64,000 bases of DNA from Escherichia phage vB_EcoM_LNA4: the sequence record MZ311864.1. One strand, given 5' to 3'. Positions 1 through 13,490 of this stretch are shown here, piece after piece. Position 1 is the stretch's first letter; the number at the start of each line of letters is the position of its first letter. A model generated the notes under the pieces. The model was not told the origin of the DNA and did no database searches. It worked only from the letters and a program-made list of their open reading frames with translations. The position numbers and the translations under genes are program-made.

Positions 1-629
1 TTTCCTGCGGATAGCCCCTCCAAGAACTTCTTACCGATTAAATACGCATCGGCGTAGTCAGCCTTTCCTGCTGCAAGAGTAACACCGTCTAACCACCCCG
101 GATAGTCGTAATCAACGGCCTTAACCATCATGGCTTTGTCCATCTTAACTTTGGAGCGTGATGATACCATTTTATTCTTCTTTTTGTCAAGCTTTTCCTT
201 AGTTACCCACTGCTCTTCCTCTGGAAGGAGGCTACGGGCAAAAGACTTAACAGAAGTCGGTGCAACAGTATGGATGTTAAAGTATTCAATAAAGTGATTA
301 CCACAACCATCCAAGCTAAGGGCAATGCAGTAGAACAGACCTGCAAGGTCCCTTGTGGCACTACCAATAGACCCAAGACTCAGTGCTTCCATCACATAAT
401 CATCTGGAGAATACTCAGTACACAGTTCATTTATCCTTTTACAGATATGCTCGATCTGCTCATAAACGGTGTCAAAGTAGTAAACTTCCGGGTTTTGCTT
501 TCCCTTGCTCTTGGTAGAACCAGTCCTGATCATCTCCCGATAAATAGGAGTCCCATCACTCCAGATAACAACGGCACAATGGGACAAAGACTGATCAACA
601 GACATCAAAACATAAGGGAACTCACTCAT
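1..629 (-). CDS. RNase H-fold nuclease, RuvC-like putative Holliday-junction resolvase (3' end beyond window start)
   Basis: Minus-strand ORF starting at ATG 629-627, checked codon by codon and open to position 1 (>208 codons). N-terminus MSEFPYVLMSVDQS. with Asp/Glu spacing reminiscent of RuvC. Absent from the supplied ORF track because it has no stop in the window. Confidence 0.3.
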   Translation of the reverse strand, partial: MSEFPYVLMSVDQSLSHCAVVIWSDGTPIYREMIRTGSTKSKGKQNPEVYYFDTVYEQIEHICKRINELCTEYSPDDYVMEALSLGSIGSATRDLAGLFYCIALSLDGCGNHFIEYFNIHTVAPTSVKSFARSLLPEEEQWVTKEKLDKKKNKMVSSRSKVKMDKAMMVKAVDYDYPGWLDGVTLAAGKADYADAYLIGKKFLEGLSAG

Positions 630-927
630 CTTTCCCGTCCACAGCATTCTCACGGAAAAGAACCAAGGAGCACTCAAGGTCACCGTAGGCAACACTTGTC
701 AACAGTAGCAACTTCTCTCCCTCAACAAGCTCACAGTCATTAAGAAGCAGGACTGTAAAGGCCTTATCTGGGTCAATGAAATCGTCTGTGAAGACAACAT
801 AGTCTCCGTGATCGGTTTCCAGCATTCTCCAAATACCTGTTCCGACCATGAACTTAGGTTTCAGAGAAGAAACAGCGAGGGCCTTAGAGTCCCTCATTAC
901 TGCTTCCATGATCATCCCGTCAATCAT
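622..927 (-). CDS. hypothetical protein
   Basis: Track ORF 622..1020 trimmed to the internal ATG at 927, which overlaps the TGA stop of the exonuclease gene (ATGA). Confidence 0.4.
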   Translation of the reverse strand: MIDGMIMEAVMRDSKALAVSSLKPKFMVGTGIWRMLETDHGDYVVFTDDFIDPDKAFTVLLLNDCELVEGEKLLLLTSVAYGDLECSLVLFRENAVDGKDE

Positions 928-2057
928 AAAACCCCCACACGGCGAAGCTCTGTACTCAAGGTGGTGTGATCGTTGGCAGTACGCTTCATATAGACCATCT
1001 GGAAGATGATTGAAGCCCACTGACCAGCACTCATTTTACGATGAGTCCCGTCCCACGAGGTAAACTCCACCCCGTTAGGGAACCAGGTTTTGTACTGGTC
1101 AACAATCGCAGTCCACATATCCTTTTCAGTCTGAAGGTGACCGATCAGGTTGAATGCAGCAGTATCCCCAAAACGCCCGGAGATATCGAATGACTGATAA
1201 GGTTTGATGTTGTCTGAGCTATCACCGCAGAGCATCTGGTAGCCAAAGAACTTACGTCCCCAGCCCTTGACCTTGTTACCTTCCATCCAAATCTCTCCCA
1301 TAGAATCATCAATGATCATTGGGATAGGGTGTTTCCATGTTTTCTCTTCGCTGTCACGCATAGTGTCAAAAAGAAGACCCGGCGTTCCCTTCTGGTCCTT
1401 ATCGAAGGATGCAACCATGTAGTTGAACTTGCCAGTGGCCTGGTAGAACTCCCACCCGGTGTTCATTAGCACAGACAGGTAATCGTCTGCCTCAACGCCG
1501 TCAATCACCTTGGCCTTGTACTTCTTCTTAACATATTCGCGTGTTTCCTGCAACAGCTTAGGACGCAGGGTGTCTTCACGGTTGCCCTTATAACGCTCAG
1601 GTGCCGGAAGTAACAGACGGAAGTTGTTTTCACCACCAAGAACACCCATCCCGTATTGGTTGTCCATTTCAAGGTGTTCAAAGATCGCATTGATCTTAGT
1701 TTTCAGGATGTGCAGGCAGTTTTCAACAGGCTCTGGAGTCTGAATGTCCTCAATCAGGAAGTCATCTCTTCCCCACGGAGTAAATTCACGTCCTTCTGCC
1801 TTTGCCTTGATTTCCATATTGGCGTTCTGGTCTTTCAACCAACCGCCTACCACCCTTTTGGTGGAACCCCAGAATTCTGTTCTGTTTTTGAAGATCTTTT
1901 CCCTGCCAGAAGCAATGTGCGTTGCCTTAATCGTGCGCTTCTCAGCGCCAGCAGCAGACACAAAGCAAGTTTGGTCAAGGTCTAAAGCGATCACACAGTC
2001 ATTCGTGACTTTATTTTTCCAATCTTTATCATACGGATATCCCACTAGCCCTCTCAA
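924..2057 (-). CDS. 5'-3' exonuclease / flap endonuclease (FEN-like)
   Basis: 377-aa ORF with IALDLDQT and GVEADDY acidic motifs typical of the 5'-3' exonuclease family. Confidence 0.55.
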   Translation of the reverse strand: MRGLVGYPYDKDWKNKVTNDCVIALDLDQTCFVSAAGAEKRTIKATHIASGREKIFKNRTEFWGSTKRVVGGWLKDQNANMEIKAKAEGREFTPWGRDDFLIEDIQTPEPVENCLHILKTKINAIFEHLEMDNQYGMGVLGGENNFRLLLPAPERYKGNREDTLRPKLLQETREYVKKKYKAKVIDGVEADDYLSVLMNTGWEFYQATGKFNYMVASFDKDQKGTPGLLFDTMRDSEEKTWKHPIPMIIDDSMGEIWMEGNKVKGWGRKFFGYQMLCGDSSDNIKPYQSFDISGRFGDTAAFNLIGHLQTEKDMWTAIVDQYKTWFPNGVEFTSWDGTHRKMSAGQWASIIFQMVYMKRTANDHTTLSTELRRVGVL

Positions 2058-2545
2058 TCGTTACTCAAATACTCGTCCAAATACCGGACATCCAGTTCCC
2101 ATTCCTCTCGCTTACTCCGTTCATGATACAAGGCAAATGCCTCGCTAACGTACTTCTCTGCGACCTGTCTGGAGACACCGTTCACCTTCATGAAGTGACG
2201 AAGGGCGATCTCTCCTCTTCCACGAATACCAGCAAGGCCGATATGTTTTACTTCGTGACATGACGGGCAGAGCGCGATAAGACCTTTCAGCGTTATCTTA
2301 CCATTACCAAAGTCCCAGATTTCGTGACACTCAACAGGGTGCTTATTCCCTTTACCACCACAAATCTCACATCTGTAATTGGCTTTGGCATAGCATTTCT
2401 TTCTTACGACATCCCATTGGGATTTAGTGAGGTGAGAGCGTAAGTTAGTAAACCAAGCTGTTTTCGGAACCAGTTCAATCTCTAATTTCAATTCACCTCC
2501 ACGAAGCTGCGATAACGACATCAATTGCTCTTTCCCAGCATTCAC
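2054..2545 (-). CDS. HNH-type endonuclease (Cys/His zinc-finger nuclease)
   Basis: CEICGG...HPVECHEIWDF...CPSCHEVKH arrangement; start may be a later Met because of the overlap with the downstream ORF. Confidence 0.45.
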   Translation of the reverse strand: MNAGKEQLMSLSQLRGGELKLEIELVPKTAWFTNLRSHLTKSQWDVVRKKCYAKANYRCEICGGKGNKHPVECHEIWDFGNGKITLKGLIALCPSCHEVKHIGLAGIRGRGEIALRHFMKVNGVSRQVAEKYVSEAFALYHERSKREEWELDVRYLDEYLSND

Positions 2546-3005
2546 CGAGAAGATTTAATCCTTGCCAGTTGGCAGGATCATCAATGCGTGTATCATATTC
2601 ATTCATTTTAACTCCCCAGATTGCGTCATATGGGGATGCCTCTACAAAGCGACGACCAGCATCTCTGTGGGTCAGTGCTGCCTCAAGGATGGATCGATTC
2701 GCCTTCATTTTCAGAACAAGACCGTTTGTTACAATGTCCATCCGGTTTTCTTCCCAGACACTATTGTCAAAGTCCCTGACTTTACGGCCCAGCGCTTTTG
2801 CCTCATTTGGATTATTAACCGTGGCAATACGTGCAGCAATCTCTTTATCATCAAAGAGCATTGCTTTCTGGAACATCATAAAGTGCTCAACCGTGAAGAA
2901 TTCATAGCCACCACAACGGATAGGGATTACCTGACGGAAGTGGTTGCTGAACATATCACGGTAAGTGAAGAAGAAAACATGCTTATCAGTTATTCTCATC
3001 ACCAA
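2493..3005 (-). CDS. NADAR (YbiA-like) domain protein
   Basis: MFSNHF, EHFMMFQKA, DAIWG and NLLGECWERA motifs resemble the YbiA/NADAR family. Confidence 0.6.
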   Translation of the reverse strand: MVMRITDKHVFFFTYRDMFSNHFRQVIPIRCGGYEFFTVEHFMMFQKAMLFDDKEIAARIATVNNPNEAKALGRKVRDFDNSVWEENRMDIVTNGLVLKMKANRSILEAALTHRDAGRRFVEASPYDAIWGVKMNEYDTRIDDPANWQGLNLLGECWERAIDVVIAASWR

Positions 3006-3010
3006 ACCTC

Positions 3011-3205
3011 TTAGTGGAATGTCTTTTTAGACGGACATGAACCAGCACCTTCTTTCACAACGCTCTCGGTACGATTACCGTCGCTGTAGATGCAGACTTT
3101 GGAGCTTCCATCAGTGTATTCATCCACCAAAGAAAGTGTGTTGACTGTGGCGAATGCCTGGGAAGAGAGCAGCGCTGCTGCTAAAAGAATTGTTGTGCGG
3201 ATCAT
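3011..3205 (-). CDS. small secreted protein
   Basis: 64-aa ORF with N-terminal signal-peptide-like segment MIRTTILLAAALLSSQAFA. Confidence 0.4.
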   Translation of the reverse strand: MIRTTILLAAALLSSQAFATVNTLSLVDEYTDGSSKVCIYSDGNRTESVVKEGAGSCPSKKTFH

Positions 3206-3268
3206 TTTGTATCTCCTTTATTAAGTTGAGACCCGATAATAATCTATCACCGGGCCTTTTGTCAACTC

Positions 3269-4159
3269 TTATTTACCTGCTGGCAGGGTAACGAATGGGG
3301 TCTGAGAGCCGCTGGTCATGTAGACTGGGGTCACACCGTTCCACTTGTTAATTGCTTCCAGTTGCATAATCTCTGGGTTTTTGCGGAGAGAATCACCACG
3401 AAGTTGGATGGATTCTGCTTCACCTTTTGCCAGCGCTACTTTAGCATCGGCTTCACCCTGAGCTTGCAGTCGCTTAGATTCAGCTTCACCGCGAGCGGCT
3501 TCGATCTGTTTCTGAGCTTCAGCTTTGGTCTGCTGGATTTCGTTTTCACGCAGCAGTGCTTTCTGAGTCGCTTCGATCTTCGCGTTGATGGACGCTGTTA
3601 CCTGTGGTGGGTAACGCAGGTCATCAGTGTAAGACAGTTTCACGATCACGATACCAATTGGGTCAAGTTTCGCTTTCAGCGTTTTCGTCACACGATCCAG
3701 AAGCTGAGATTTACCATCACCAGCCAGCGTACCGATATCCATCGTACCCGCTTCTTTGATCAGTGCATCAGAGATGTTCTGACGAATGTTTACATCAGTG
3801 ATTTCCTGAACACCTTTACGGTAAGTCTGGAAGATCTTGGTGACCTTAGAGCGGTCAACGTAGTATTCAACACCAACCTTCGCAGAGACTGTCATGGAGT
3901 CTTTGGTCTGGAAGTTAAACGGCTGGTCGTAGTTGTTCAACTGATTGAACGTTGGGAACTGATAGATCTCTTCGTTCCATGTCAGCCAATATTTACCAAC
4001 ACCGACTTCCTGTTGCTGAACGCCCTTCTCATCGCCGTACAGGTCAACCTTGACACCAACGTAACCTGCCGGGACGGTTGCACGTTCACAACCTGTCAGG
4101 CCAATTGCACCCAGAGCGATCAGGCCAGCGAAAACTACACGTTTGATATTCTTAAGCAT
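3269..4159 (-). CDS. SPFH/band-7 (prohibitin-like) lipoprotein
   Basis: Lipobox LTGC after a signal sequence, then an SPFH-like domain and an Ala/Glu/Gln-rich coiled coil. Confidence 0.5.
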   Translation of the reverse strand: MLKNIKRVVFAGLIALGAIGLTGCERATVPAGYVGVKVDLYGDEKGVQQQEVGVGKYWLTWNEEIYQFPTFNQLNNYDQPFNFQTKDSMTVSAKVGVEYYVDRSKVTKIFQTYRKGVQEITDVNIRQNISDALIKEAGTMDIGTLAGDGKSQLLDRVTKTLKAKLDPIGIVIVKLSYTDDLRYPPQVTASINAKIEATQKALLRENEIQQTKAEAQKQIEAARGEAESKRLQAQGEADAKVALAKGEAESIQLRGDSLRKNPEIMQLEAINKWNGVTPVYMTSGSQTPFVTLPAGK

Positions 4160-4299
4160 TGGTTTGGTTCTCCTCTTTGATTTTGTATTCAGTTTTTACA
4201 GTTTGGTCAACGTGATCGTCAACAATTTTCGCTACCAAGGCAGCGGCAGACTTATTTCTGGACCGGGCCAGATGCTGCAACTTTTCCCAGGTAGATGCT

Positions 4300-4503
4300 T
4301 TAAGATTTAGTAGCATCTAAGCCTCCACGTTTAAAGAACACTTTACGGACCCAATACCACACAACCGCCGGGGCTGAGAACACCAGGGCGAAACCGCCGA
4401 TAACGCCCAGTGTATCTTTAGCAGAAACTAAAGTTGGTACTGCGAACCCGAAGATGAAGCAAAGGAAAACAAATAAGCCAACACCATTCAGGTAATATTT
4501 CAT
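4300..4503 (-). CDS. small membrane protein
   Basis: 67-aa ORF with two hydrophobic helices. Confidence 0.4.
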   Translation of the reverse strand: MKYYLNGVGLFVFLCFIFGFAVPTLVSAKDTLGVIGGFALVFSAPAVVWYWVRKVFFKRGGLDATKS

Positions 4504-4838
4504 TATTGAGCACCTTCCGCAGCGGCTGGTTTGCCACGACCAAACAGAATATCTGCTTCGGTCATCTGCTCAACCTGCTCCTCAAGGTTTTTACGCTTTT
4601 TACCAGCCTGATACTGACGGTCAAACTCTGCTGCTACCAGCGTTTTGATGAATTTAGGATCGTAGTTGTGGCTGTCCTTTTCTACCGCAACGATGTCCTT
4701 GAACTGGCTCGCCGCATCTTTCTGGGCGATCTTCGCATCAACACCTTCCTGAATTACTTTCTTCAGGCGATCACGCTCTACTGGGTCAGAAGGCAGGGTG
4801 TTTTTCAGTTCTACTTTGATTTTAGGCATACGTGGCAT
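4503..4838 (-). CDS. hypothetical protein
   Basis: 111-aa ORF in the co-directional minus-strand gene string. Confidence 0.4.
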   Translation of the reverse strand: MPRMPKIKVELKNTLPSDPVERDRLKKVIQEGVDAKIAQKDAASQFKDIVAVEKDSHNYDPKFIKTLVAAEFDRQYQAGKKRKNLEEQVEQMTEADILFGRGKPAAAEGAQ

Positions 4839-4906
4839 AGTTTTGTTTCTCCTCTGTTTGTTTAGTCTGTTCAGTATAACTACTTAATTCTTTTTGTCAA
4901 ACACTT

Positions 4907-5152
4907 TTAATCAATGCCGACAATCTTTCCACCAGAACGCTCAATCTGAGCAATATACGCATCCAGTGTTCCGAGTGTACACTCATAGGCGTACTTCTTC
5001 TCACCACCCCAACGACGCTTCATTGTGAAGCGAATCACGTATTTTCTACGCGGCAATGGAGACACCGAGCTTTGGTCAATGCTGATTTTAACATTCAAAC
5101 GCTTTGCCAGTTCACGGAGGTCACTAAAGACCTTTTCAACATCTTCGTTCAC
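4907..5152 (-). CDS. hypothetical protein
   Basis: 81-aa ORF in the minus-strand gene string. Confidence 0.35.
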   Translation of the reverse strand: MNEDVEKVFSDLRELAKRLNVKISIDQSSVSPLPRRKYVIRFTMKRRWGGEKKYAYECTLGTLDAYIAQIERSGGKIVGID

Positions 5153-5206
5153 TTATTTCTCCTCTCTGTCTTGATAGGGGTCATTATACAGACCCCTTAT
5201 TCATTG

Positions 5207-5896
5207 TCAAGCAATAATTTTCGGACTTTCGAAAGTGCTTGGCTTCATGATCTTGCCATTGTTGTCGAAGAACACAAGGCGCGGATCTGTCGAGCTAGGG
5301 TCTTTGGCATTATACACCTTATGGCATCTAACACCAGAGTAACGACCATTAGACCTGTCCTCAATTGCTTTGCACTCCAGACGAAGAGCTTCATTATGCT
5401 CTTTATCAGGCCATAGGGCAAGAACATCCTGAAGATACGGATACTTCGTATCGTTAGAGTGTAAAACCTGCTGCATGTTGTAGTCAAGATTAATATCAAG
5501 ACGATAGCACAATGCAGTCACCAGCTTCAGTACATAAACAGGATCTTGCATGTTGCCATACAGGTTGTGTTCAAGATCACCAATGGTAAACGTCAATGTT
5601 GGTGAAGGAGTACAAGCCTCACGAAGATACTCAGGGCTTTTCAACTGACAAGCATATGAGGCCACAACAAAGAGATCACAGGCAGCATCAATAGTTTCAA
5701 TGCGATCTCCAACACGGAGTGCATCAACAAGTTCGTTGAATTCTTCGCGAATAAAGCCCCATTGCAGATCAAATGGTGTTGCTACATTGTTCCGAGCACG
5801 ATATGCAACATGGTTCCATTCAATCACATGCTCCGCGTATGCGTACAGATCTGATGGTTTTGTCATCGCTAAAAGTGTTTCGTAAACCTTACTCAT
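5207..5896 (-). CDS. hypothetical protein (possible all-alpha NTP pyrophosphohydrolase)
   Basis: 229-aa ORF; REEFNELVDAL...IDAACDL segment loosely resembles MazG-type EExxE/D motifs (weak). Confidence 0.3.
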   Translation of the reverse strand: MSKVYETLLAMTKPSDLYAYAEHVIEWNHVAYRARNNVATPFDLQWGFIREEFNELVDALRVGDRIETIDAACDLFVVASYACQLKSPEYLREACTPSPTLTFTIGDLEHNLYGNMQDPVYVLKLVTALCYRLDINLDYNMQQVLHSNDTKYPYLQDVLALWPDKEHNEALRLECKAIEDRSNGRYSGVRCHKVYNAKDPSSTDPRLVFFDNNGKIMKPSTFESPKIIA

Positions 5897-5905
5897 TGAT
5901 TCTCC

Positions 5906-6277
5906 TTAATTAATTACATCTGTTGCGTGATCACCTTCCGGTTGGTCACGAATAATTCTTAATGGCAAAAGAGCGCCGTTCTTAGCTACGAACAGGCATT
6001 TGTCGCCATATGTCCCATTCTTGTACCAAGAATAAGAAGTGTTAACCTTGTAGGCCATGCCGTCGAATTGACAGGTCATGGTGTTCCACAACGGTTTGGT
6101 AAGGGCCAGCGTTACCAGGCCCAACACAACAGCCCAAATCAACAGCATACGTTTCACCTTTCCCTGAATCCAGTCAATGAAATCGTCAAGCTTGTCTTTC
6201 CGGAAACGGTAGGCGATATAAATACCGCCCCCGGTTAACAGTGTTGCTCCAAAGAGCGCCAGCCAATACCAGATCAT
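5906..6277 (-). CDS. membrane protein
   Basis: 123-aa ORF with N-terminal hydrophobic helices. Confidence 0.4.
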   Translation of the reverse strand: MIWYWLALFGATLLTGGGIYIAYRFRKDKLDDFIDWIQGKVKRMLLIWAVVLGLVTLALTKPLWNTMTCQFDGMAYKVNTSYSWYKNGTYGDKCLFVAKNGALLPLRIIRDQPEGDHATDVIN

Positions 6278-6741
6278 TATGCACGTACCTCTGTTACCTT
6301 CACGGTTGCTTCACCGCGAAGCTGGATGTTAGAACCATCATCGAGAGTGAGAATGATATCGTCGCCACTGATTTTGTGACCCTTAACGACATAATCTTTA
6401 CCCCACATCTCTACCTTATCGCCCATCACGACATTTTTCGCCTTGTAATCACCAGGCAGGCGATCTTCATCGCTAACCGCTTCGTAAAGGTCGCTAAAAG
6501 CCTGTGGAGACATTGCTGTGAACTGATCGCCCACCTTTACAATGTAATCGCCTGGAAACGCCTGAACGCCGTTAACGTCCATATTTCGGATATCCCGTGT
6601 ATGGATCTCAGAATCTTTCCATACCCCGGTCTCGATCCACTTGGTCACTTGACCAACCCCGGTGCTAGACCCATTGAATACGTGTGCTTCAACCTCTTGA
6701 GGTTTACGACTATAGAATCCCATTAGTAGACTGGCTCCCAT
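6277..6741 (-). CDS. hypothetical protein
   Basis: 154-aa ORF, stop/start abutting its neighbours. Confidence 0.4.
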   Translation of the reverse strand: MGASLLMGFYSRKPQEVEAHVFNGSSTGVGQVTKWIETGVWKDSEIHTRDIRNMDVNGVQAFPGDYIVKVGDQFTAMSPQAFSDLYEAVSDEDRLPGDYKAKNVVMGDKVEMWGKDYVVKGHKISGDDIILTLDDGSNIQLRGEATVKVTEVRA

Positions 6742-8027
6742 GTTAATGTGTTAAGTTCACGTACACTCTGCCCCACTGGGAACTGAGGTACACCATCATC
6801 AGTACGCGACTGGAATGTAAAGTTGATGAAACCACCAACCAACAGCAACATCTTCGCCTGAGAACGTTCTGCGTGTGTGCCTTTCATTTTACAGTTGAAT
6901 CGTGTTCCGTCCTGTTCTTCGCAAAGCAGAACACCTTCACCATTTTTGTCCTCTACAGAATCAAGGACTTTGGCCTCACCGTCCTGGAACAGCTTCCATT
7001 TCTGGAGATCAGTGGATCGCTGCCCGAACTCATATTTACCTTTGAAGTTTCGGATGATAACACCCTCAAACCCGGCTTCCATGTAATAACCGATAAAGCG
7101 TTTCACAGATGCTTCGTCTTTCACGAACTCGCCATGAACGATAGCAATCTTAGGAACATCAATCTCACATTCTACAGCTTCAGCCACAGCATTAAGATCA
7201 GCCATACGGGTTTGATCATGATCCTGAGAGTGCCAAGGACTGTGTGCATTCACTGGAATATCAAAGATATGATACTCAAGGTCAAGACTCGAATAACCGC
7301 TATAACGATCAACATCCTTCACAGGTTTATACGTTGAAACAGCCCACACGTTACCGTCAAAGTCTTTCCAGAGGTGTTCCCCTGCTGCAACCGCCTTGTT
7401 GTAACGCTTGATATCTGCTTGATAATCTTTTTCGATCTCAGCTTCAATCTGCTCAGGTGTACGCCACTTCTTAGCGAGAGCAACAATCTTCTGTAGACTC
7501 AGGCCATGAATATACAGTTCCCCATCGAACTTGTCAAACCCGGAATGCTCTGCAAGTTCTTTAACCTGTTGCAAAAGAGCACCCTGCACTGGATACGTCT
7601 TATTACCACGGCTATTGAACACTGGAATGCCGTCCTTGTCAAGCGTGACAAGAGCACGAACGCCGTCGAGCTTTGGCTGCACATAGGCAGGATAAACGAT
7701 AGCTGAAAATCGTTTGATCGCATCATGCGCCAGCATAGGAGAGAAGTTCTCTTCCGTCTGCAACTCTTCCTTAGTCTCACGATAACCTAAACGGACTTGC
7801 TTTTCCCATTTGGATCTTGCTTCAAGAACCGCTTGGAATACGGCAGTAGTCTCATTGGAACGGCCAATGTTTTTCATTTCACACTTGGTACGCTTTTGTT
7901 GAATCTTTCCGTTTTCCTTACCGAAAGAAACGACAACCTCATCACCTTCTGTGGTTACATTCCAAACTTGGTACGATCCGTCTTTGTTGAGAGCGTACAG
8001 TGTTGGTGTGTCTAAACTAATTGACAT
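6723..8027 (-). CDS. ATP-dependent DNA ligase
   Basis: KLDGVR adenylation motif I, EGVIIRN motif IV and LQKWK motif V in a 434-aa protein. Confidence 0.7.
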   Translation of the reverse strand: MSISLDTPTLYALNKDGSYQVWNVTTEGDEVVVSFGKENGKIQQKRTKCEMKNIGRSNETTAVFQAVLEARSKWEKQVRLGYRETKEELQTEENFSPMLAHDAIKRFSAIVYPAYVQPKLDGVRALVTLDKDGIPVFNSRGNKTYPVQGALLQQVKELAEHSGFDKFDGELYIHGLSLQKIVALAKKWRTPEQIEAEIEKDYQADIKRYNKAVAAGEHLWKDFDGNVWAVSTYKPVKDVDRYSGYSSLDLEYHIFDIPVNAHSPWHSQDHDQTRMADLNAVAEAVECEIDVPKIAIVHGEFVKDEASVKRFIGYYMEAGFEGVIIRNFKGKYEFGQRSTDLQKWKLFQDGEAKVLDSVEDKNGEGVLLCEEQDGTRFNCKMKGTHAERSQAKMLLLVGGFINFTFQSRTDDGVPQFPVGQSVRELNTLTWEPVY

Positions 8028-8803
8028 TATTTCTCCTTCTTCTGTAAAGGCGTTTTTCCTTCAAGGTGGTCTTCAACCATCTTGATTAAACCGGGATTGC
8101 TGAAAGCATCAACAGCACCTGTACGATAAACGATAACACCCGCATCTTCATACATCAACTGCTCATCATAGCGAACACCGGGGTTAACAACCACCACCTT
8201 TGTTCCTCTCATGACAGCAGGGAAAAGTTCCCAGTTGAAGTTGATCACTGTGTTTGAACATCCAACCACAATCACCATATCCTCAGATGTCAAGCTGTCC
8301 AAGGTTGAGTATAGCTGCCCGTATGCAGGCGCAGTTTCACCAAAAAAGATAACGTTAGGCTTACACCAACCATAATCATCTGGGTCAATCTGCTCATAAC
8401 CAACATCAATGATCTTTTTAGGTGATCCAGCCTCAGTCTCAATCACCAACTCTTTCAGATAACCATGAATATAAAGCGTATCTTCTTTAGGAACACCTGC
8501 ACGTTCCAATAGATCATCAACGTTAGTTGTCAAGTTAATAACCTGGTTCGGATAGTTTTTATACCACTCTGCCACACGCATATGTGCAGCATTAGGATGC
8601 ACAGTTTGCAGTTCTGCACGACGCTTGTTATAAAAGGTGTGCGTCTTATGGTAAAAATTACCACGAAAGGCATGAATGTTGCAGACCTCTTCAAGGTCAT
8701 ACTCATCCCACAAGGCCTTACCGGAGTCGGTGTCAGTACGGAATGTACGAACACCGCTCTCAGCAGAGAAACCAGCACCACTAATTACATATAAACGCCT
8801 CAT
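8027..8803 (-). CDS. Sir2-family (sirtuin-like) NAD-dependent protein
   Basis: GAGFSAESGVRTFR, TTNVDDLLERAG and IHG motifs match Sir2 NAD-binding and catalytic signatures. Confidence 0.6.
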   Translation of the reverse strand: MRRLYVISGAGFSAESGVRTFRTDTDSGKALWDEYDLEEVCNIHAFRGNFYHKTHTFYNKRRAELQTVHPNAAHMRVAEWYKNYPNQVINLTTNVDDLLERAGVPKEDTLYIHGYLKELVIETEAGSPKKIIDVGYEQIDPDDYGWCKPNVIFFGETAPAYGQLYSTLDSLTSEDMVIVVGCSNTVINFNWELFPAVMRGTKVVVVNPGVRYDEQLMYEDAGVIVYRTGAVDAFSNPGLIKMVEDHLEGKTPLQKKEK

Positions 8804-9018
8804 GGATTAACCACCTCGCTAATAGCCCTCATTGCCCCATTATGGCCTTGGCAACGCTCATCAATACCTTTCATGTAGCAAATTTTACTTGCAACACGAT
8901 AGTTAGCGAACTGCCAAGCCTGCCATGCTGCTGTTTTCGCAGCGGGTTCTTCCCACGGGTGGGCGAGAGAGTTCCACCAATTTTCGAACTCAACCCACTG
9001 CATGTTTTCTTTGTTCAT
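8800..9018 (-). CDS. hypothetical protein
   Basis: 72-aa ORF overlapping the Sir2 start by 4 nt. Confidence 0.35.
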   Translation of the reverse strand: MNKENMQWVEFENWWNSLAHPWEEPAAKTAAWQAWQFANYRVASKICYMKGIDERCQGHNGAMRAISEVVNP

Positions 9019-9024
9019 TATTCC

Positions 9025-9909
9025 TCACTGTAATTTCAATGAGTTACGCAGACGACGCTCTTGAGCATCACGGGTTTCCTGCGGAACGCTGTGAATAGAA
9101 TCATTGCCATGACGGTTCTCTACCACCAAGCTAATGACGCGATACCCATTCTCGGCTGCGAGGTCGAGGTATGGTTTCAGTTCTTTTTCACTGGTAGAGG
9201 TGTTAGACACGATGATCCTACGGAAATTCCAACCCATCATGTCCTTAACTTCTGACTGGCACCATGTGTGTGCCGCCTGAATATTCTCAGGTTTCCAGTC
9301 ATAAACACCATCTTCCGTATAGTGGAATTTATCTGCTTCACAGACAGGCCACAAACCCTCTGACAGCATCTTTCCCGTTGTCATATTACGAGCACCAATC
9401 AGATACGCACCAGGTTGTTCGTGAACTATATGCGGGTCAGAATCATCACAAATTTCAAACATTAAAGTCAAACAAGATTGCCCTACATGTGTCCACATGG
9501 ATGGGTGGTTTGCCTTTTCAACACCACTCAAAATATGAGTTTTTGCAATATCTGCAAATTCGGAATCAAGAGTTCCGGTGGTGGATACTAAAACATCGCC
9601 TTTATAAATTGAGGCCGCTGCCATAAAGCCATTAACTTTACGAGGTACACACACCAACTGGTCTCGTGGAACATCGGTATTATTCTCGAAGCGGTTGAAA
9701 ATCTTCGTGAAAGGCCAGATAACAACGTTGTCTTCTGCATCAACAACCATGCCACGGCACTCCAGAAGACGTGCGTCTGTGTGCCACAGGTTATCCCAGA
9801 ACACATTGTTCTTATATTTCAGAACAGACAGACCCGCGAACGGGCCTTCGGTATAAGTCTTTTTGGTTACAAGCTTTTTAGCAACAAGGTCATCTACGTT
9901 AAATTTCAT
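9025..9909 (-). CDS. hypothetical protein (KxNG nucleotidyltransferase-like motif)
   Basis: 294-aa ORF; PRKVNGF resembles ligase motif I, but the other ligase motifs are not convincing. Confidence 0.35.
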   Translation of the reverse strand: MKFNVDDLVAKKLVTKKTYTEGPFAGLSVLKYKNNVFWDNLWHTDARLLECRGMVVDAEDNVVIWPFTKIFNRFENNTDVPRDQLVCVPRKVNGFMAAASIYKGDVLVSTTGTLDSEFADIAKTHILSGVEKANHPSMWTHVGQSCLTLMFEICDDSDPHIVHEQPGAYLIGARNMTTGKMLSEGLWPVCEADKFHYTEDGVYDWKPENIQAAHTWCQSEVKDMMGWNFRRIIVSNTSTSEKELKPYLDLAAENGYRVISLVVENRHGNDSIHSVPQETRDAQERRLRNSLKLQ

Positions 9910-9918
9910 TTGTGTCCC

Positions 9919-10095
9919 CTACTTTTTCTTGAAGAATGACTGGATTATACATGCCTCACGGCGGCTGTCAATACTTTGTTCTGGCATTGATGCCGCTGTT
10001 ACAAGTTTAGCAACATCGCGCTTGTCGATGGAGCCATACGCACCAGAATCCATCATGAAGAAAATCTTATCTTGGGTAATTTTATGAACTTTCAT
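9919..10095 (-). CDS. small hypothetical protein
   Basis: 58-aa minus-strand ORF (MKVHKITQDK...) found by hand, with an AGAGAGGA Shine-Dalgarno upstream; not in the supplied track. Confidence 0.35.
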   Translation of the reverse strand: MKVHKITQDKIFFMMDSGAYGSIDKRDVAKLVTAASMPEQSIDSRREACIIQSFFKKK

Positions 10096-10113
10096 AAGTC
10101 CTCTCTTAGGTAA

Positions 10114-10509
10114 TTAACTACGCTTTTCGTAACCTTCTGCCTGATAGTAGGTAGTATTGTGCGGCGTTTCAATGCTAAAACTGATCTGGCAGAGTTCTTG
10201 GGCTAAGAATGTACCAAGTTCTACAGCCATGTCAAGGATTTCATGCTCAGGTCGCTCAAAGCGAGGATATTGCATGATCCGGACAGTCATACCGTCCTCA
10301 ACACCCCCGGTATACACGTAGGTACACGGGGAGATCTGCACACAAGCGCCCTTCATTACCCACTGGCGGCACAGGTTTTCAGCCTGATTGTAGTTCCCAG
10401 CGATGTGAATTGTTGCATAGAACGACTTAGAAGTCTTCTTTGGTAAAAAGTTACGTTTCTTATTGTGCATATTATTATCCGTGATCAGCAGTGTAAATTG
10501 GTTTAGCAA
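10114..10509 (-). CDS. hypothetical protein
   Basis: 131-aa ORF. Confidence 0.4.
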   Translation of the reverse strand: MLNQFTLLITDNNMHNKKRNFLPKKTSKSFYATIHIAGNYNQAENLCRQWVMKGACVQISPCTYVYTGGVEDGMTVRIMQYPRFERPEHEILDMAVELGTFLAQELCQISFSIETPHNTTYYQAEGYEKRS

Positions 10510-11071
10510 GGCACATCAGAACAGCTTCACGCATCGTCAAAGGACGACCATGCACATCCCAACCCACATCAAGAATACGTCCACCAGGGGCCGTGTAGGA
10601 GCCGTGGCTGTGACCGTGCAGCATTACCGACCCGTGGTGAGCTTTATTCCATGATGCAAACGGATAGTGGGACATACACACCTTCACCTTTTCTTTCCCG
10701 GTGCTGAACTCAATTTCCTTATAGTCCACGACTTCATGACCAAACTCACGGAAGATACGTTTTGTCTGATGGTTGTCATGATTACCACCAACCAGAATGA
10801 TCTTCCCATTGATACGGCTCAGGATATCACGAACTTTTGGCTCAACTTGCTTACCATAGGCAATAACGAAATCACCAAGGTGTGCCACCACATCGTCAGG
10901 CTTGACGTTTTTGTTCCACGTCTTAACCATGTCATCGTTCATTTTGACAACGGAGGCTGAGTCTTCTTTCGGACCATACAGGTTCTTACGGAACTTATCA
11001 CACGATGGGAAACCAAGAATGTTGGTGTGCCACCAGTGAGTGTCTGACGTGACGTGATCAATTTGAATCAT
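10475..11071 (-). CDS. calcineurin-like metallophosphoesterase (Ser/Thr phosphatase-like)
   Basis: DTHW, GDFV, GNHD and GHSHG metal-binding motifs. Confidence 0.6.
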   Translation of the reverse strand: MIQIDHVTSDTHWWHTNILGFPSCDKFRKNLYGPKEDSASVVKMNDDMVKTWNKNVKPDDVVAHLGDFVIAYGKQVEPKVRDILSRINGKIILVGGNHDNHQTKRIFREFGHEVVDYKEIEFSTGKEKVKVCMSHYPFASWNKAHHGSVMLHGHSHGSYTAPGGRILDVGWDVHGRPLTMREAVLMCLAKPIYTADHG

Positions 11072-11352
11072 TTCTTTTTCCTTTTTGTTGTTTTCTTATA
11101 CAAACCTAAAGCCGCATTCTCTTTAGCGCAGGTGAGGACCTTTTCGATCTTGCGACGATCAACCTCCGGCATATTAAGCTCCCACCAACCCATCCAATAG
11201 ATCTGGTCTTTGGTCAGGGGTTCTGCCATAGGATCTTCTTCTTGTGCATTAAGCCTTGCGATGGCCTCTTTTATCACAGACACATCTGTTGTAAAAACAA
11301 ACGCTTCTGTATCGAACTTGTCTTTAACTGGCTTCTTAATATCTTTTTTCAT
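11068..11352 (-). CDS. hypothetical protein
   Basis: 94-aa ORF with 4-nt overlaps to both neighbours. Confidence 0.4.
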   Translation of the reverse strand: MKKDIKKPVKDKFDTEAFVFTTDVSVIKEAIARLNAQEEDPMAEPLTKDQIYWMGWWELNMPEVDRRKIEKVLTCAKENAALGLYKKTTKRKKK

Positions 11353-11639
11353 TTTATCTCCGTAGCCGGGTAAGCATAGAGGATTCCGTCACGAATGTTA
11401 CGGTTGTGCTGCCACACAATTAGCTTCATGCACACCAAATTAACTACATGACGATCACCATGAATGTAGACACTGGAGTCCATCCATGTCTTACCCCAGC
11501 CAACACGACTGTCTAGATACAGCTTAACACCATATCTCTTCTCCGCTGCACTCATAATCTCCAAGAGGGCTTCATAAGCCTCTTTGTAGATTGAGTTATC
11601 GCAGGTAATGCTCTTCATATCCAAATTAACCCTCCACAA
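11349..11639 (-). CDS. hypothetical protein
   Basis: 96-aa ORF. Confidence 0.4.
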   Translation of the reverse strand: MWRVNLDMKSITCDNSIYKEAYEALLEIMSAAEKRYGVKLYLDSRVGWGKTWMDSSVYIHGDRHVVNLVCMKLIVWQHNRNIRDGILYAYPATEIK

Positions 11640-11735
11640 TAGCCCTCAGAGCCTCTGAGCGGCCCTGTATTGAATTAAATGGGTGTAGGGAACCCAAGTG
11701 TACCACCACACCATTAAAACCTCTTAAAACGCCTC

Positions 11736-12080
11736 TCAGAGCGTTATACGAATCTCACTGAGATCCACCACACAATTATTACTCTCGATATGTTCCACTG
11801 TCAAGTCCTTATACCACACAACAGTGACATTTCTTCGTCTTAGACGACTACGTAATGACGTGAGGTAGTCTCCGAACACTTCCTGTTCAGACTTACCATC
11901 TGGTAAAACTACACACACATTTTGTTCTCTCATTGATTCATGAAACACATCACGAATCAACATGAGTCTTGACTTCTCCTCGTCAGTCTGTTCAGCTTTA
12001 CGACGAGGTTTACCACTCACAGTCTTCGACTGACCACACACCATATCACCAATATCTTTTGTTTGTTTACTTGACAACAT
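11736..12080 (-). CDS. hypothetical protein
   Basis: Track ORF 11736..12149 trimmed to ATG 12080, which is preceded by a strong AAGGAG Shine-Dalgarno; first gene of the leftward operon. Confidence 0.45.
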   Translation of the reverse strand: MLSSKQTKDIGDMVCGQSKTVSGKPRRKAEQTDEEKSRLMLIRDVFHESMREQNVCVVLPDGKSEQEVFGDYLTSLRSRLRRRNVTVVWYKDLTVEHIESNNCVVDLSEIRITL

Positions 12081-12304
12081 TACAATCTCCTTTAACAATA
12101 CGAGCATTCTACATGAACAAAATCTGAAGTCAACCCCTTGACAGCACATTCCTGTTCATTCATACTGCGGTTCATCAAGTGAACGACTCTTTGATAGTAG
12201 AACATATAGATCATGCTAAAAGATCTTGTTTTTAGATCTTATGTTTTATTGTTTTTATAAAAGAGTATTGTTTTATTTATTTTATATAGTATTTATTTCT
12301 GTTA

Positions 12305-12344
12305 TCAATTTGAGACTAGGCTTAGTGTCAATTTGAGACTAAGC
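12305..12344 (+). promoter_or_regulatory. direct repeat TCAATTTGAGACTA(G/A)GCT x2, candidate operator upstream of the HTH gene
   Basis: Two near-identical 17-bp copies at 12305-12321 and 12328-12344, 15 nt before the ATG of the HTH ORF, inside the AT-rich divergent region. Confidence 0.4.
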
Positions 12345-12358
12345 TATGGAGGAGAGAC

Positions 12359-12676
12359 ATGGGGTACATCGCGTCAGGTAAGCACATCTACGGTAACTTC
12401 GAACTGAAGTTGCTGTCGGTGACCTGCGCCTCGTCCAACGACAAGATTGTGTACCTCTACATGCGTCATCAGTATCACTACTTCAAGTCTCTCCGGAAAA
12501 CGTACCATGAGTCGCTTGACAGTATTGCTGATGCCACAGGATTATCGAGGGCAACTGTTGCCAGGTGTGTGAGCAACCTTGAAAAGATAAAGTGGTTGAC
12601 AAAGGACACAACACGCACCAATATGGGCCACAACAAAACGATTTACGAAATTCACAATTGGACAGAGGAGAAATAA
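12359..12676 (+). CDS. HTH DNA-binding protein (putative transcriptional regulator)
   Basis: SLDSIADATGLSRATVARCVSNLEK helix-turn-helix-like segment; GGAGGAG Shine-Dalgarno; first gene of the rightward arm. Confidence 0.45.
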   Translation: MGYIASGKHIYGNFELKLLSVTCASSNDKIVYLYMRHQYHYFKSLRKTYHESLDSIADATGLSRATVARCVSNLEKIKWLTKDTTRTNMGHNKTIYEIHNWTEEK

Positions 12677-12677
12677 A

Positions 12678-13490
12678 ATGAGTATTGAATTACGTTTGAA
12701 CAAACTGGTTGTTCCTGTAGACCACTTCACCTTTAAGGGTGGTGAGGAACAGGTCAAAATTGACCTAAAACACGCACCAAAAGGCGGTATTGGTTTCGTA
12801 GATATCACTGCCAAAATCAAAAATTCAACTGATGTCATGGCACTGGCTATGTTGGTGGATGCGTGTTCCCGTTTGGAAGGATTGCATAACCACGCAGAGT
12901 TCACCCTGCACCTTCCATACATCCCGTATGCACGTCAAGACCGTGTAATGAACCCAGGTGAAGCGTTATCTATTAAGGTTTTCGCAAACATTGTCAACTC
13001 GCTTGGTTTCGACACGGTTATCGTTGATGACCCGCACAGCGATGTCTCTGCTGCACTGCTCAATAACGTCCGTATCCGTGGTCAGGATGTTCTTATTTCC
13101 GAGATGAAAGATCTTGGCAACTCCACATTGCATAGCAACTCTTTGGTTGTGGTAGCACCTGATGCGGGTGCTCGCAAGAAAGCCCATAAGGTTGCTGACC
13201 GATTCAGTCTTCCTCTTGTTGAGGCTGGTAAAGTACGTGATTTGCAGACCAACGAAATCACTGGTACTGCGGTGTTCGGAGATGTTGAAGGTAAAGTGTG
13301 TATGATTGTTGATGATATCTGCGACGGTGGTCGTACATTCATCGCCCTTGCACAGGCCCTGAAAGAAAACGGTGCGAAACGTGTTATCCTGTACGTTACT
13401 CACGGTATCTTTTCTTTCGGTAAACAGGTCATCCTCGATGGTGGGGTTGATGAAATCTATGCGTATCATGACTGGACGGAGAATTTTTAA
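12678..13490 (+). CDS. ribose-phosphate pyrophosphokinase-family enzyme (Prs-like; candidate Adps)
   Basis: YARQDR and PRPP-binding loop MIVDDICDGGRT, VVAPDAGA; 270 aa. Confidence 0.7.
   Translation: MSIELRLNKLVVPVDHFTFKGGEEQVKIDLKHAPKGGIGFVDITAKIKNSTDVMALAMLVDACSRLEGLHNHAEFTLHLPYIPYARQDRVMNPGEALSIKVFANIVNSLGFDTVIVDDPHSDVSAALLNNVRIRGQDVLISEMKDLGNSTLHSNSLVVVAPDAGARKKAHKVADRFSLPLVEAGKVRDLQTNEITGTAVFGDVEGKVCMIVDDICDGGRTFIALAQALKENGAKRVILYVTHGIFSFGKQVILDGGVDEIYAYHDWTENF

Follow-up and report, generated by a model that had tools for sequence, protein, structure and literature searches.

Positions 3011 to 4503 of a 64,000-nucleotide (nt) stretch of Escherichia phage vB_EcoM_LNA4 (MZ311864.1; "the window" is this whole stretch) contain a conserved two-gene pair, in which the gene for a small, two-helix membrane protein of 67 amino acids (aa) lies directly upstream of the gene for a 296-aa lipoprotein of the SPFH (Band 7) family. 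By sequence comparison this pair, a hairpin membrane protein followed by an SPFH protein, is the unit that recurs across viral lineages and in bacterial chromosomes. We give a probability of roughly 0.5 to the reading that the two proteins are made early in infection and form an SPFH cage complex that sits on the cytoplasmic membrane, faces the periplasm and has a general role at that membrane. A first-pass annotation of the interval had described an envelope-targeted trio composed of a secreted 64-aa protein, the SPFH lipoprotein and the 67-aa membrane protein; its description of the individual proteins held up, but its gene count and its grouping did not.

The SPFH lipoprotein and its two-helix partner

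The two members of the pair are located as follows.

3269..4159, minus strand: 296-aa SPFH/Band 7 lipoprotein (Pfam Band_7, phrog_200)
4300..4503, minus strand: 67-aa predicted hairpin membrane protein with two transmembrane (TM) segments (phrog_1130, E=7.4e-26)

The 296-aa protein matches the Pfam Band_7/SPFH profile (PF01145) with E=1.9e-21 and 77.3 bits, against a cut-off of 23.6, over positions 2-176 of the 176 in the profile, and matches phrog_200 'lipoprotein' with E=2.3e-91. Its AlphaFold2 model, built from an alignment of 36 sequences (mean predicted local distance difference test score, pLDDT, 81.6), has an N-terminal helix, strands between residues 25 and 101, helices between 103 and 165, a single helix at 185-260 and a low-confidence tail at 279-296. 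This corresponds to an SPFH domain followed by a coiled-coil helix of ~75 residues and then by a conserved C-terminal tail. Foldseek returned a probability of 1.00 for this model against HflC/HflK, prohibitin, stomatin, erlin, QmcA and flotillin. Judged by profile and predicted fold together, the 296-aa protein is a real SPFH protein, in agreement with the first-pass description of it as prohibitin-like. No profile match beyond the SPFH families was found in Pfam, PHROG, NCBIfam or PADLOC.

Four residues, W273, G275, P278 and P288, are invariant in the SPFH homologues (alignment A1). The window copy and a minority of homologues share an 11-residue insertion in the coiled-coil helix (residues ~236-246; alignment columns 257-267); a step of 11 residues preserves the helical register and would alter the height of a cage. 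The SPFH protein is also much better conserved than the products of neighbouring genes (86% aa identity versus 50-55% in locus L011), and orthologues with 96-99% aa identity are annotated in phages GAP31, 4MG and PVP-SE1.

The N-terminus of the SPFH protein, MLKNIKR-VVFAGLIALGAIG-LTGC, has basic residues at K3, K6 and R7, a 13-residue hydrophobic segment (V8-G20) and a lipobox at L21-T22-G23-C24. Accordingly, the LTGC lipobox recorded in the first-pass annotation agrees with the pattern rule for bacterial lipoproteins, the substrates of signal peptidase II (a basic n-region, an h-region and [LVI][ASTVI][GAS]C within ~15-35 residues of the N-terminus), and by that rule Cys24 is the predicted acylated residue. 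The lipobox cysteine is kept in most close homologues in the same alignment, and about half of the wider family is without a canonical lipobox, having just a hydrophobic N-terminal anchor. Every relative examined has either an export or an anchor signal; what differs is the type of anchor.

The 67-aa protein has two hydrophobic segments and a basic C-terminal tail, and pattern rules thus support its earlier description as a membrane protein. In its family (alignment A2), a proline (Pro23) is invariant and belongs to a P-x-L-[VIL]-S-[AS] motif that ends the first hydrophobic segment; in the window copy this loop motif reads P23-T-L-V-S-A. Because of the invariant proline, the loop motif and the basic C-tail, the sequence suggests a hairpin whose two ends are cytoplasmic and whose very short loop is periplasmic. 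The family phrog_1130 takes in 11 of 19 partner representatives. No Pfam match above threshold, NfeD included, was found for the 67-aa protein or for 18 of its homologues, and on these grounds we rejected its identity as an NfeD protein.

The pairing of the two genes was assessed in 78 IMG/VR loci whose SPFH relatives have 49-100% identity; the loci form 17 lineages when clustered at 85% identity. A two-TM open reading frame (ORF) of about 55-75 aa ends at, or just inside, the SPFH start in all 78 of them. The two genes share a 4-nt start/stop overlap in 35 loci, and overlaps of between 1 and 41 nt are frequent; only in the Seunavirus lineage do the genes stand apart, by 140-158 nt, with a 54-aa ORF filling the gap. 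When all ORFs within 3 kb were clustered over these loci, no further neighbour gene was common across lineages; a third conserved cassette gene was therefore rejected, the hairpin partner being the only one recovered.

Occurrence of the pair in phages and bacteria

SPFH homologues are widespread, found in 531 phage records that cover Gram-negative, Gram-positive and archaeal hosts and include N4-like, lambdoid/Stx, Burkholderia, Pseudomonas, Caulobacter, crAss-like, Bacillus, Staphylococcus and haloarchaeal phages. The window has just one SPFH gene, as does each locus that was inspected closely. In the more distant phages cr126_1, AR9, Twillingate, CcrSwift, DL54 and HF1 the neighbour of the SPFH gene encodes a small membrane protein that is not detectably homologous to the 67-aa protein.

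Phage N4 has the same pair, gp19-gp20, in the same gene order and with start and stop overlapping. These are direct homologues of the window proteins: gp20, annotated as a lipoprotein (PHROG 200), is 47% identical to the SPFH protein over 285 residues (E=9e-91), and gp19, annotated as a membrane protein (PHROG 1130), matches the 67-aa protein with E=3e-7. N4 differs from the window in lacking both the intervening 54-aa ORF and a downstream homologue of the 64-aa peptide. Its pair is placed just after the RNAPII genes. No paper on the function of gp19-gp20 was found in the literature searched.

The pair is also present in Stx2 phages, phiP27, phiE125 and a Klebsiella prophage, and in temperate phages it lies between cI and int, in the early-left region. 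In Stx2-converting phages and phiP27 the partner ORF is present and unannotated (e.g. the Stx2a phage Stx2_499, LC567824, at about 3800-4000 in locus L084). The labels given to the SPFH gene vary among 'lipoprotein', 'serine protease' (in Stx2, Klebsiella and Erwinia phage records), 'transposase' (in some Ruegeria, Pseudomonas and Erwinia records) and 'hypothetical'. Neither a protease nor a transposase domain is detectable in the window SPFH protein, and we rejected a serine protease identity accordingly; the probable origin of the label is an older designation, 'membrane protease subunit, stomatin/prohibitin homologue'.

Most of the 72 bacterial loci carry the pair, down to an SPFH identity of 30%; the carriers include Xenorhabdus, Sutterella, Yersinia, Kluyvera, Dyella, Saprospirales, Chitinophaga and others. 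In Dyella and its relatives (Rhodanobacteraceae) the pair occupies a conserved chromosomal site in 21-25 of 31 loci (L117-L155, ~30 species), flanked on one side by divergent genes for a BlaI-like repressor and a BlaR1-like M56 peptidase, and on the other side by nrdAB. The pair is therefore also cellular, and this synteny suggests a cellular role, possibly linked to envelope-stress sensing.

For phage SPFH proteins, the literature searched gave no function and contained genome-annotation mentions only: a 2026 study of an N4-like phage calls the reason for an SPFH gene in a phage genome unclear (PMC13239085), and papers on T4-like genomes merely list the SPFH domain. The family itself is already catalogued as phrog_200 'lipoprotein', and what is new is its strict pairing with a hairpin protein; no description of a module combining a P-x-L-x-S hairpin with an exported SPFH protein was found in the same literature.

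Gene map and predicted transcription units

Sequence comparison places the window in the Vequintavirinae, near Seunavirus. Over positions 2500-5000 it is 94.5% identical to the Cronobacter phage GAP31 and 82-91% identical to 4MG, PVP-SE1 and Klebsiella relatives. Every gene in its first 12 kb is on the minus strand, and the interval under study (3011-4503) is set in a module for replication and nucleotide metabolism that encodes an exonuclease, an HNH endonuclease, a NADAR protein, a pyrophosphohydrolase, a ligase and a Sir2 protein. The interval holds four minus-strand ORFs, of 64, 296, 54 and 67 aa, rather than the three consecutive genes of the first-pass annotation, which had passed over the 54-aa ORF; a 111-aa ORF lies ahead of them. 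Besides the pair, the following features were identified.

4873..4900, minus strand: predicted sigma-70-type promoter (TTGACA, 16-nt spacer, TATACT; 11/12 matches), ahead of the run of 111-, 67-, 54- and 296-aa ORFs
4503..4838, minus strand: 111-aa protein (phrog_639 'transcriptional regulator'), heading the four-gene run
4152..4316, minus strand: 54-aa soluble helical protein (phrog_13358, E=1.9e-38)
3223..3268, minus strand: hairpin without a U-tract (-21.7 kcal/mol, z = -5.3), directly 3' of the SPFH stop codon
3236..3265, minus strand: predicted sigma-70-type promoter (TTGACA, 18-nt spacer, TATTAT; 11/12 matches), ahead of the 64-aa ORF
3011..3205, minus strand: predicted 64-aa exported peptide (phrog_4641)

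In the run of 111-, 67-, 54- and 296-aa genes the consecutive overlaps are 1, 17 and 8 nt, the 111-aa gene meeting the 67-aa gene at an ATGA, and a Shine-Dalgarno-like sequence precedes each ORF. Since separate promoters are predicted at 4900-4873 and 3265-3236, with a hairpin between the two groups of genes, the sequence divides into two predicted transcription units, the four-gene run and then the 64-aa ORF. A promoter is annotated in PVP-SE1 at the place equivalent to 4873-4900, which we infer to be functional in the window. Promoter-like sites in the region 1-13000 number 34, as against 20.1 +/- 4.9 in shuffles, and the best scorers are on the minus strand. The near-consensus sigma-70-type promoters and the promoter annotations of PVP-SE1 would be consistent with early expression of the genes in the interval.

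The hairpin at 3223-3268 contains both the -35 and the -10 hexamers of the promoter for the 64-aa ORF, and would act as a transcript end, a stabiliser or a processing site. A similar arrangement is seen at 5176-5197, where the -10 element TATAAT of another sigma-70-type promoter lies within the loop of the hairpin AGGGGTC/GACCCCT (z = -2.6); the promoter at 4900, unlike these two, is without a hairpin. The promoter-in-hairpin sites at 3223-3268 and 5176-5197, both GC-rich hairpins, may be combined transcript-end and promoter elements.

All ORFs of the interval are under purifying selection, synonymous changes far outnumbering non-synonymous ones, with ratios of non-synonymous to synonymous substitution rates (dN/dS) of 0.02-0.23. 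The comparators were GAP31, PVP-SE1, Ro1-like and BIS47-like phages, one more distant IMG/VR relative and an Avunavirus. The values for the individual proteins are:

SPFH protein (296 aa): dN/dS 0.02-0.07
67-aa protein: dN/dS 0.12-0.14
54-aa protein: dN/dS 0.18
64-aa protein: dN/dS 0.13-0.23

The 54-aa ORF overlaps the ends of both the 67-aa and the SPFH genes and is annotated in GAP31 and PVP-SE1. It is found in the Seunavirus lineage only, being absent from the Avunavirus copy and from the 16 other lineages, and on this distribution it is a lineage-specific insertion. Its product matches the Pfam family RHH_4 at E=0.006 and 17 bits, below the cut-off of 25. A single-sequence model of the protein has an extended N-terminus and two helices, and gave no significant Foldseek match, nor did the sequence have one in the PDB; neither the model nor the fold search supported an RHH fold beyond the sub-threshold Pfam match. 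The 111-aa protein has weak similarity to UPF0335 (PDB 6cfx, E=0.16). Phage PBES 02 has a gene annotated 'transcriptional regulator' in the slot of the 111-aa ORF and no SPFH gene in the stretch examined. The 111-aa gene is a backbone gene of the Vequintavirinae, not a member of the cassette.

The 64-aa protein has a signal-peptide-like segment (residues 1-19, ending AFA|T) followed by a mature part of 45 aa. In its homologues the mature part is conserved, with two invariant cysteines, and the N-terminal segment is variable; the homologue in PBES 02 carries a depositor-annotated signal peptide. By these pattern rules the protein is probably exported, and its earlier description as secreted is sustained. 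Homologues occur in 101 phage records, Certrevirus and rV5-like phages included; in nearly all of them genome size and host are those of Vequintavirinae-like phages. In the Certrevirus PBES 02 and the rV5-like W70 no SPFH gene adjoins the homologue. In the window the 64-aa gene lies beyond the strong hairpin and has its own predicted promoter. We therefore rejected the trio as a functional unit; on the comparative evidence the 64-aa peptide is an independent backbone gene of the phage subfamily, and a neighbour of the cassette rather than a member of it.

Several other features of the region were recorded. A gene for a NADAR-domain protein is at 2493-3005 on the minus strand (Pfam E=2.6e-34), and a minus-strand ORF at 8027-8803 occupies the position of a gene annotated as Sir2-like in PVP-SE1. 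A 123-aa protein with at least one strongly hydrophobic segment is encoded at 5906-6277, also on the minus strand. The long frames listed for positions 1-9000 are all on the minus strand, and the sign of the GC skew flips near 12 kb, from negative to mostly positive, which may mark a switch of coding strand between modules.

Membrane location and possible role of the pair

The positions of the pair are those of early regions: sigma-70-type promoters in the window, the stretch after the RNAPII genes in N4, and the interval between cI and int in temperate phages. In the mechanism that we propose, host RNA polymerase would transcribe both genes early from the consensus-like promoter at ~4900; we infer the steps from export onward. 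The SPFH protein would be exported by its lipoprotein signal peptide and, as the lipobox predicts, acylated at Cys24. Its fold and architecture suggest that it would then oligomerise, by way of the long coiled coil and the C-terminal tail, and so build a ring or cage enclosing a patch of membrane. Precedents for such a cage are HflK/C, QmcA, prohibitin, stomatin, flotillin and erlin, all with solved assemblies, and every SPFH assembly that has been solved is a cage of 22-44 subunits that confines membrane (PMC12478178). The protein would face the periplasm, like HflK/C (PMC2636767, PMC13086221). The hairpin protein, made in coupled amounts, would have both ends in the cytoplasm and present only the short loop P-x-L-[VIL]-S-[AS] at the periplasmic face. 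As the proposed membrane-embedded partner, it would either anchor the cage on the cytoplasmic membrane or be enclosed by it, a partnership resembling that of YbbJ (an NfeD protein) with QmcA. The outcome is most likely a general one, namely to compartmentalise or stabilise the cytoplasmic membrane during infection, or to control access to membrane proteins. A general rather than a host-receptor-specific role is favoured because the homologues are found in phages of Gram-negative, Gram-positive and archaeal hosts and the pair occupies a chromosomal site in Dyella.

The SPFH-NfeD operons (QmcA-YbbJ and YqiK-YqiJ) likewise couple an SPFH gene to an adjacent gene for a small membrane protein, and QmcA forms a 26-mer cage (PDB 8z5g); the likeness is an organisational analogy, not homology. 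The phage partner is a 67-aa hairpin without the NfeD domain (PF01957, a C-terminal OB-fold), for which it is too short, and QmcA faces the cytoplasm (PMC2636767), whereas the phage SPFH protein is predicted to be exported. Published surveys saw no NfeD partner for the subfamilies SPFH3, SPFH4 and SPFH6-12 (PMC2636767).

The lipobox bears on which membrane the SPFH protein would occupy. Under the '+2 rule' of E. coli, an aspartate at position +2 keeps a lipoprotein in the inner membrane. The window copy has a glutamate at +2, and for this reason the rule predicts its sorting to the outer membrane. Among 35 unique lipobox-pattern sequences the +2 residue is Glu in 19 and Asp in 8; these counts are approximate, since the lipobox expression yielded a few false matches (e.g. 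the Val, Leu and Met '+2' counts). Because the family mixes Glu, Asp and other residues with lipobox-less anchors, the rule gives no consistent location and was rejected as a guide to sorting.

An outer-membrane lipoprotein, sorted by Lol to the inner leaflet of the outer membrane and altering its organisation, vesiculation or receptor exposure without the two-TM protein, would accord with these glutamates. It would accord, too, with PM0222, an HflK/C-like SPFH protein of a Pasteurella multocida prophage that was investigated as a virulence factor, is released in outer-membrane vesicles and signals as an agonist of TLR1/2, a receptor for triacylated lipoproteins (PMC9872710); like the window protein, PM0222 is a prophage- or phage-borne SPFH envelope protein, the two being likened by description and not by sequence comparison. 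This location is nevertheless improbable: the half of the relatives that have only an anchor and no canonical lipobox would be unable to reach the outer membrane, eight of the unique sequences (an approximate count) have Asp at +2, strict pairing and translational coupling with a cytoplasmic-membrane hairpin would be difficult to account for if the two proteins were in separate membranes, and the phages of Gram-positive and archaeal hosts that encode homologues infect cells without an outer membrane. These features of the family, unlike the Glu at +2, would point to the inner membrane.

Several observations weigh against a cage on the cytoplasmic membrane built from both proteins. The Glu at +2 would take the window copy away from its inner-membrane partner, and PM0222, a possible member of the family, has been reported from outer-membrane vesicles (PMC9872710). 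The first hydrophobic segment of the 67-aa protein ends V-S-A|K, which could alternatively be a signal-peptidase site; a cleaved signal peptide would change the topology, leaving a single-pass peptide. In some distant phages the SPFH gene lies next to a gene for a protein with one TM segment (AR9, Twillingate and DL54) or, in the FelixO1-like phage vEam_PM_6, next to no membrane-protein gene at all. For oligomerisation, or for a contact between the SPFH protein and its partner, adjacency and translational coupling would be indirect evidence.

The predicted early expression and envelope location would also suit superinfection exclusion, in which the cassette, acting at the cytoplasmic membrane, would stop a second phage either as its genome enters or at a step in the periplasm. 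T4 Imm and Sp, P22 SieA and HK97 gp15 are exclusion proteins that act in that way. The cassette is present in virulent and temperate phages alike, in N4 it adjoins gp18, annotated 'superinfection exclusion, similar to P22 gp17', and the category given to phrog_1130 is 'moron, auxiliary metabolic gene and host takeover'. Phage lipoproteins can mediate exclusion, as do T5 Llp, which is made early, Cor of phi80 and N15, and Ltp of TP-J34. Like the window SPFH protein these are phage-encoded envelope lipoproteins; unlike it they are small, specific for a receptor or for injection, and without an SPFH fold, and we know of no exclusion protein with that fold. None of the five proteins encoded by the interval and the 111-aa ORF has a match in PADLOC-DB at E<=0.01, and no paper was found tying an SPFH protein to exclusion (one paper with both terms was judged by its title). 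Lysogens of temperate phages normally keep the early-left region between cI and int repressed, which would leave them unprotected by the cassette, and the conserved Dyella locus beside BlaI/BlaR1-like genes and nrdAB is chromosomal. With this evidence on both sides, we regard exclusion as unlikely.

A further possibility concerns the protease FtsH. HflK/C-FtsH control of lambda CII offers a precedent for a phage protein that would mimic HflK/C, caging or displacing host FtsH from the periplasmic side and so altering the turnover of membrane proteins or phage regulators. HflC and HflK are among the top sequence and structure matches of the 296-aa protein, and they share with it the SPFH fold, the long coiled coil, the C-terminal tail, and an N-terminal anchor with the bulk of the protein predicted to be periplasmic. 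The early-left region, in which lambdoid phages carry the cassette, is also where lambda has cIII, an inhibitor of FtsH. HflK/HflC, however, are a heteromeric pair with a TM helix that forms a cage around FtsH; the window has a single SPFH gene whose product carries a predicted lipid anchor. The protein scores far under the NCBIfam equivalog cut-offs for HflK (TIGR01933; 43.8 versus 159.4 bits) and HflC (TIGR01932; 26.2 versus 134.4 bits), and a sequence search of the PDB placed QmcA, HflC, HflK and prohibitin at about equal distance (E ~1e-4 to 1e-5), on which grounds orthology to HflK or HflC was rejected. Homologues are also found in haloarchaeal viruses, and to our knowledge haloarchaeal hosts lack FtsH. 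A dedicated FtsH mimic, which we consider very unlikely, is disfavoured both by the HflK/C scores below threshold and by the homologues in archaeal viruses.

Control of lysis timing, with the cage restraining a holin or other lesions of the cytoplasmic membrane until late infection, is highly doubtful. Very delayed lysis is a known trait of N4, one of the phages with the cassette. In the crAss-like phage cr126_1 (locus L089, 2268-3100) the pair is followed by another two-TM protein and a peptidoglycan hydrolase, the sole possible link to lysis genes that was seen. Against this, lysis genes are not among the conserved neighbours of the cassette in the window, N4, the temperate phages or the 17 viral lineages, and the promoters look early rather than late. 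Superinfection exclusion, FtsH modulation, outer-membrane action and lysis timing are all less well supported than a cage on the cytoplasmic membrane.

More speculatively, and with the odds against it, the pair may be a distinct SPFH-partner module distributed across many phyla, a periplasm-facing counterpart of SPFH-NfeD. N4-like, rV5-related, lambdoid and crAss-like phages would have captured it repeatedly from cells, and the early cage would shield the infected cell, for example against competing genomes or membrane-targeting abortive-infection effectors.

For the window, the practical result is a corrected gene map, with four genes and two predicted transcription units, and a pair in place of a trio. 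A cage role would explain why the SPFH gene is far more conserved than its neighbours (86% versus about 50% identity). SPFH cages enclose membrane, and their purpose is still debated; the minimal viral version, one SPFH gene with a 67-aa partner, is found in the tractable phage N4 and in hundreds of other phages, and would offer a simple system in which to ask what such cages are for.

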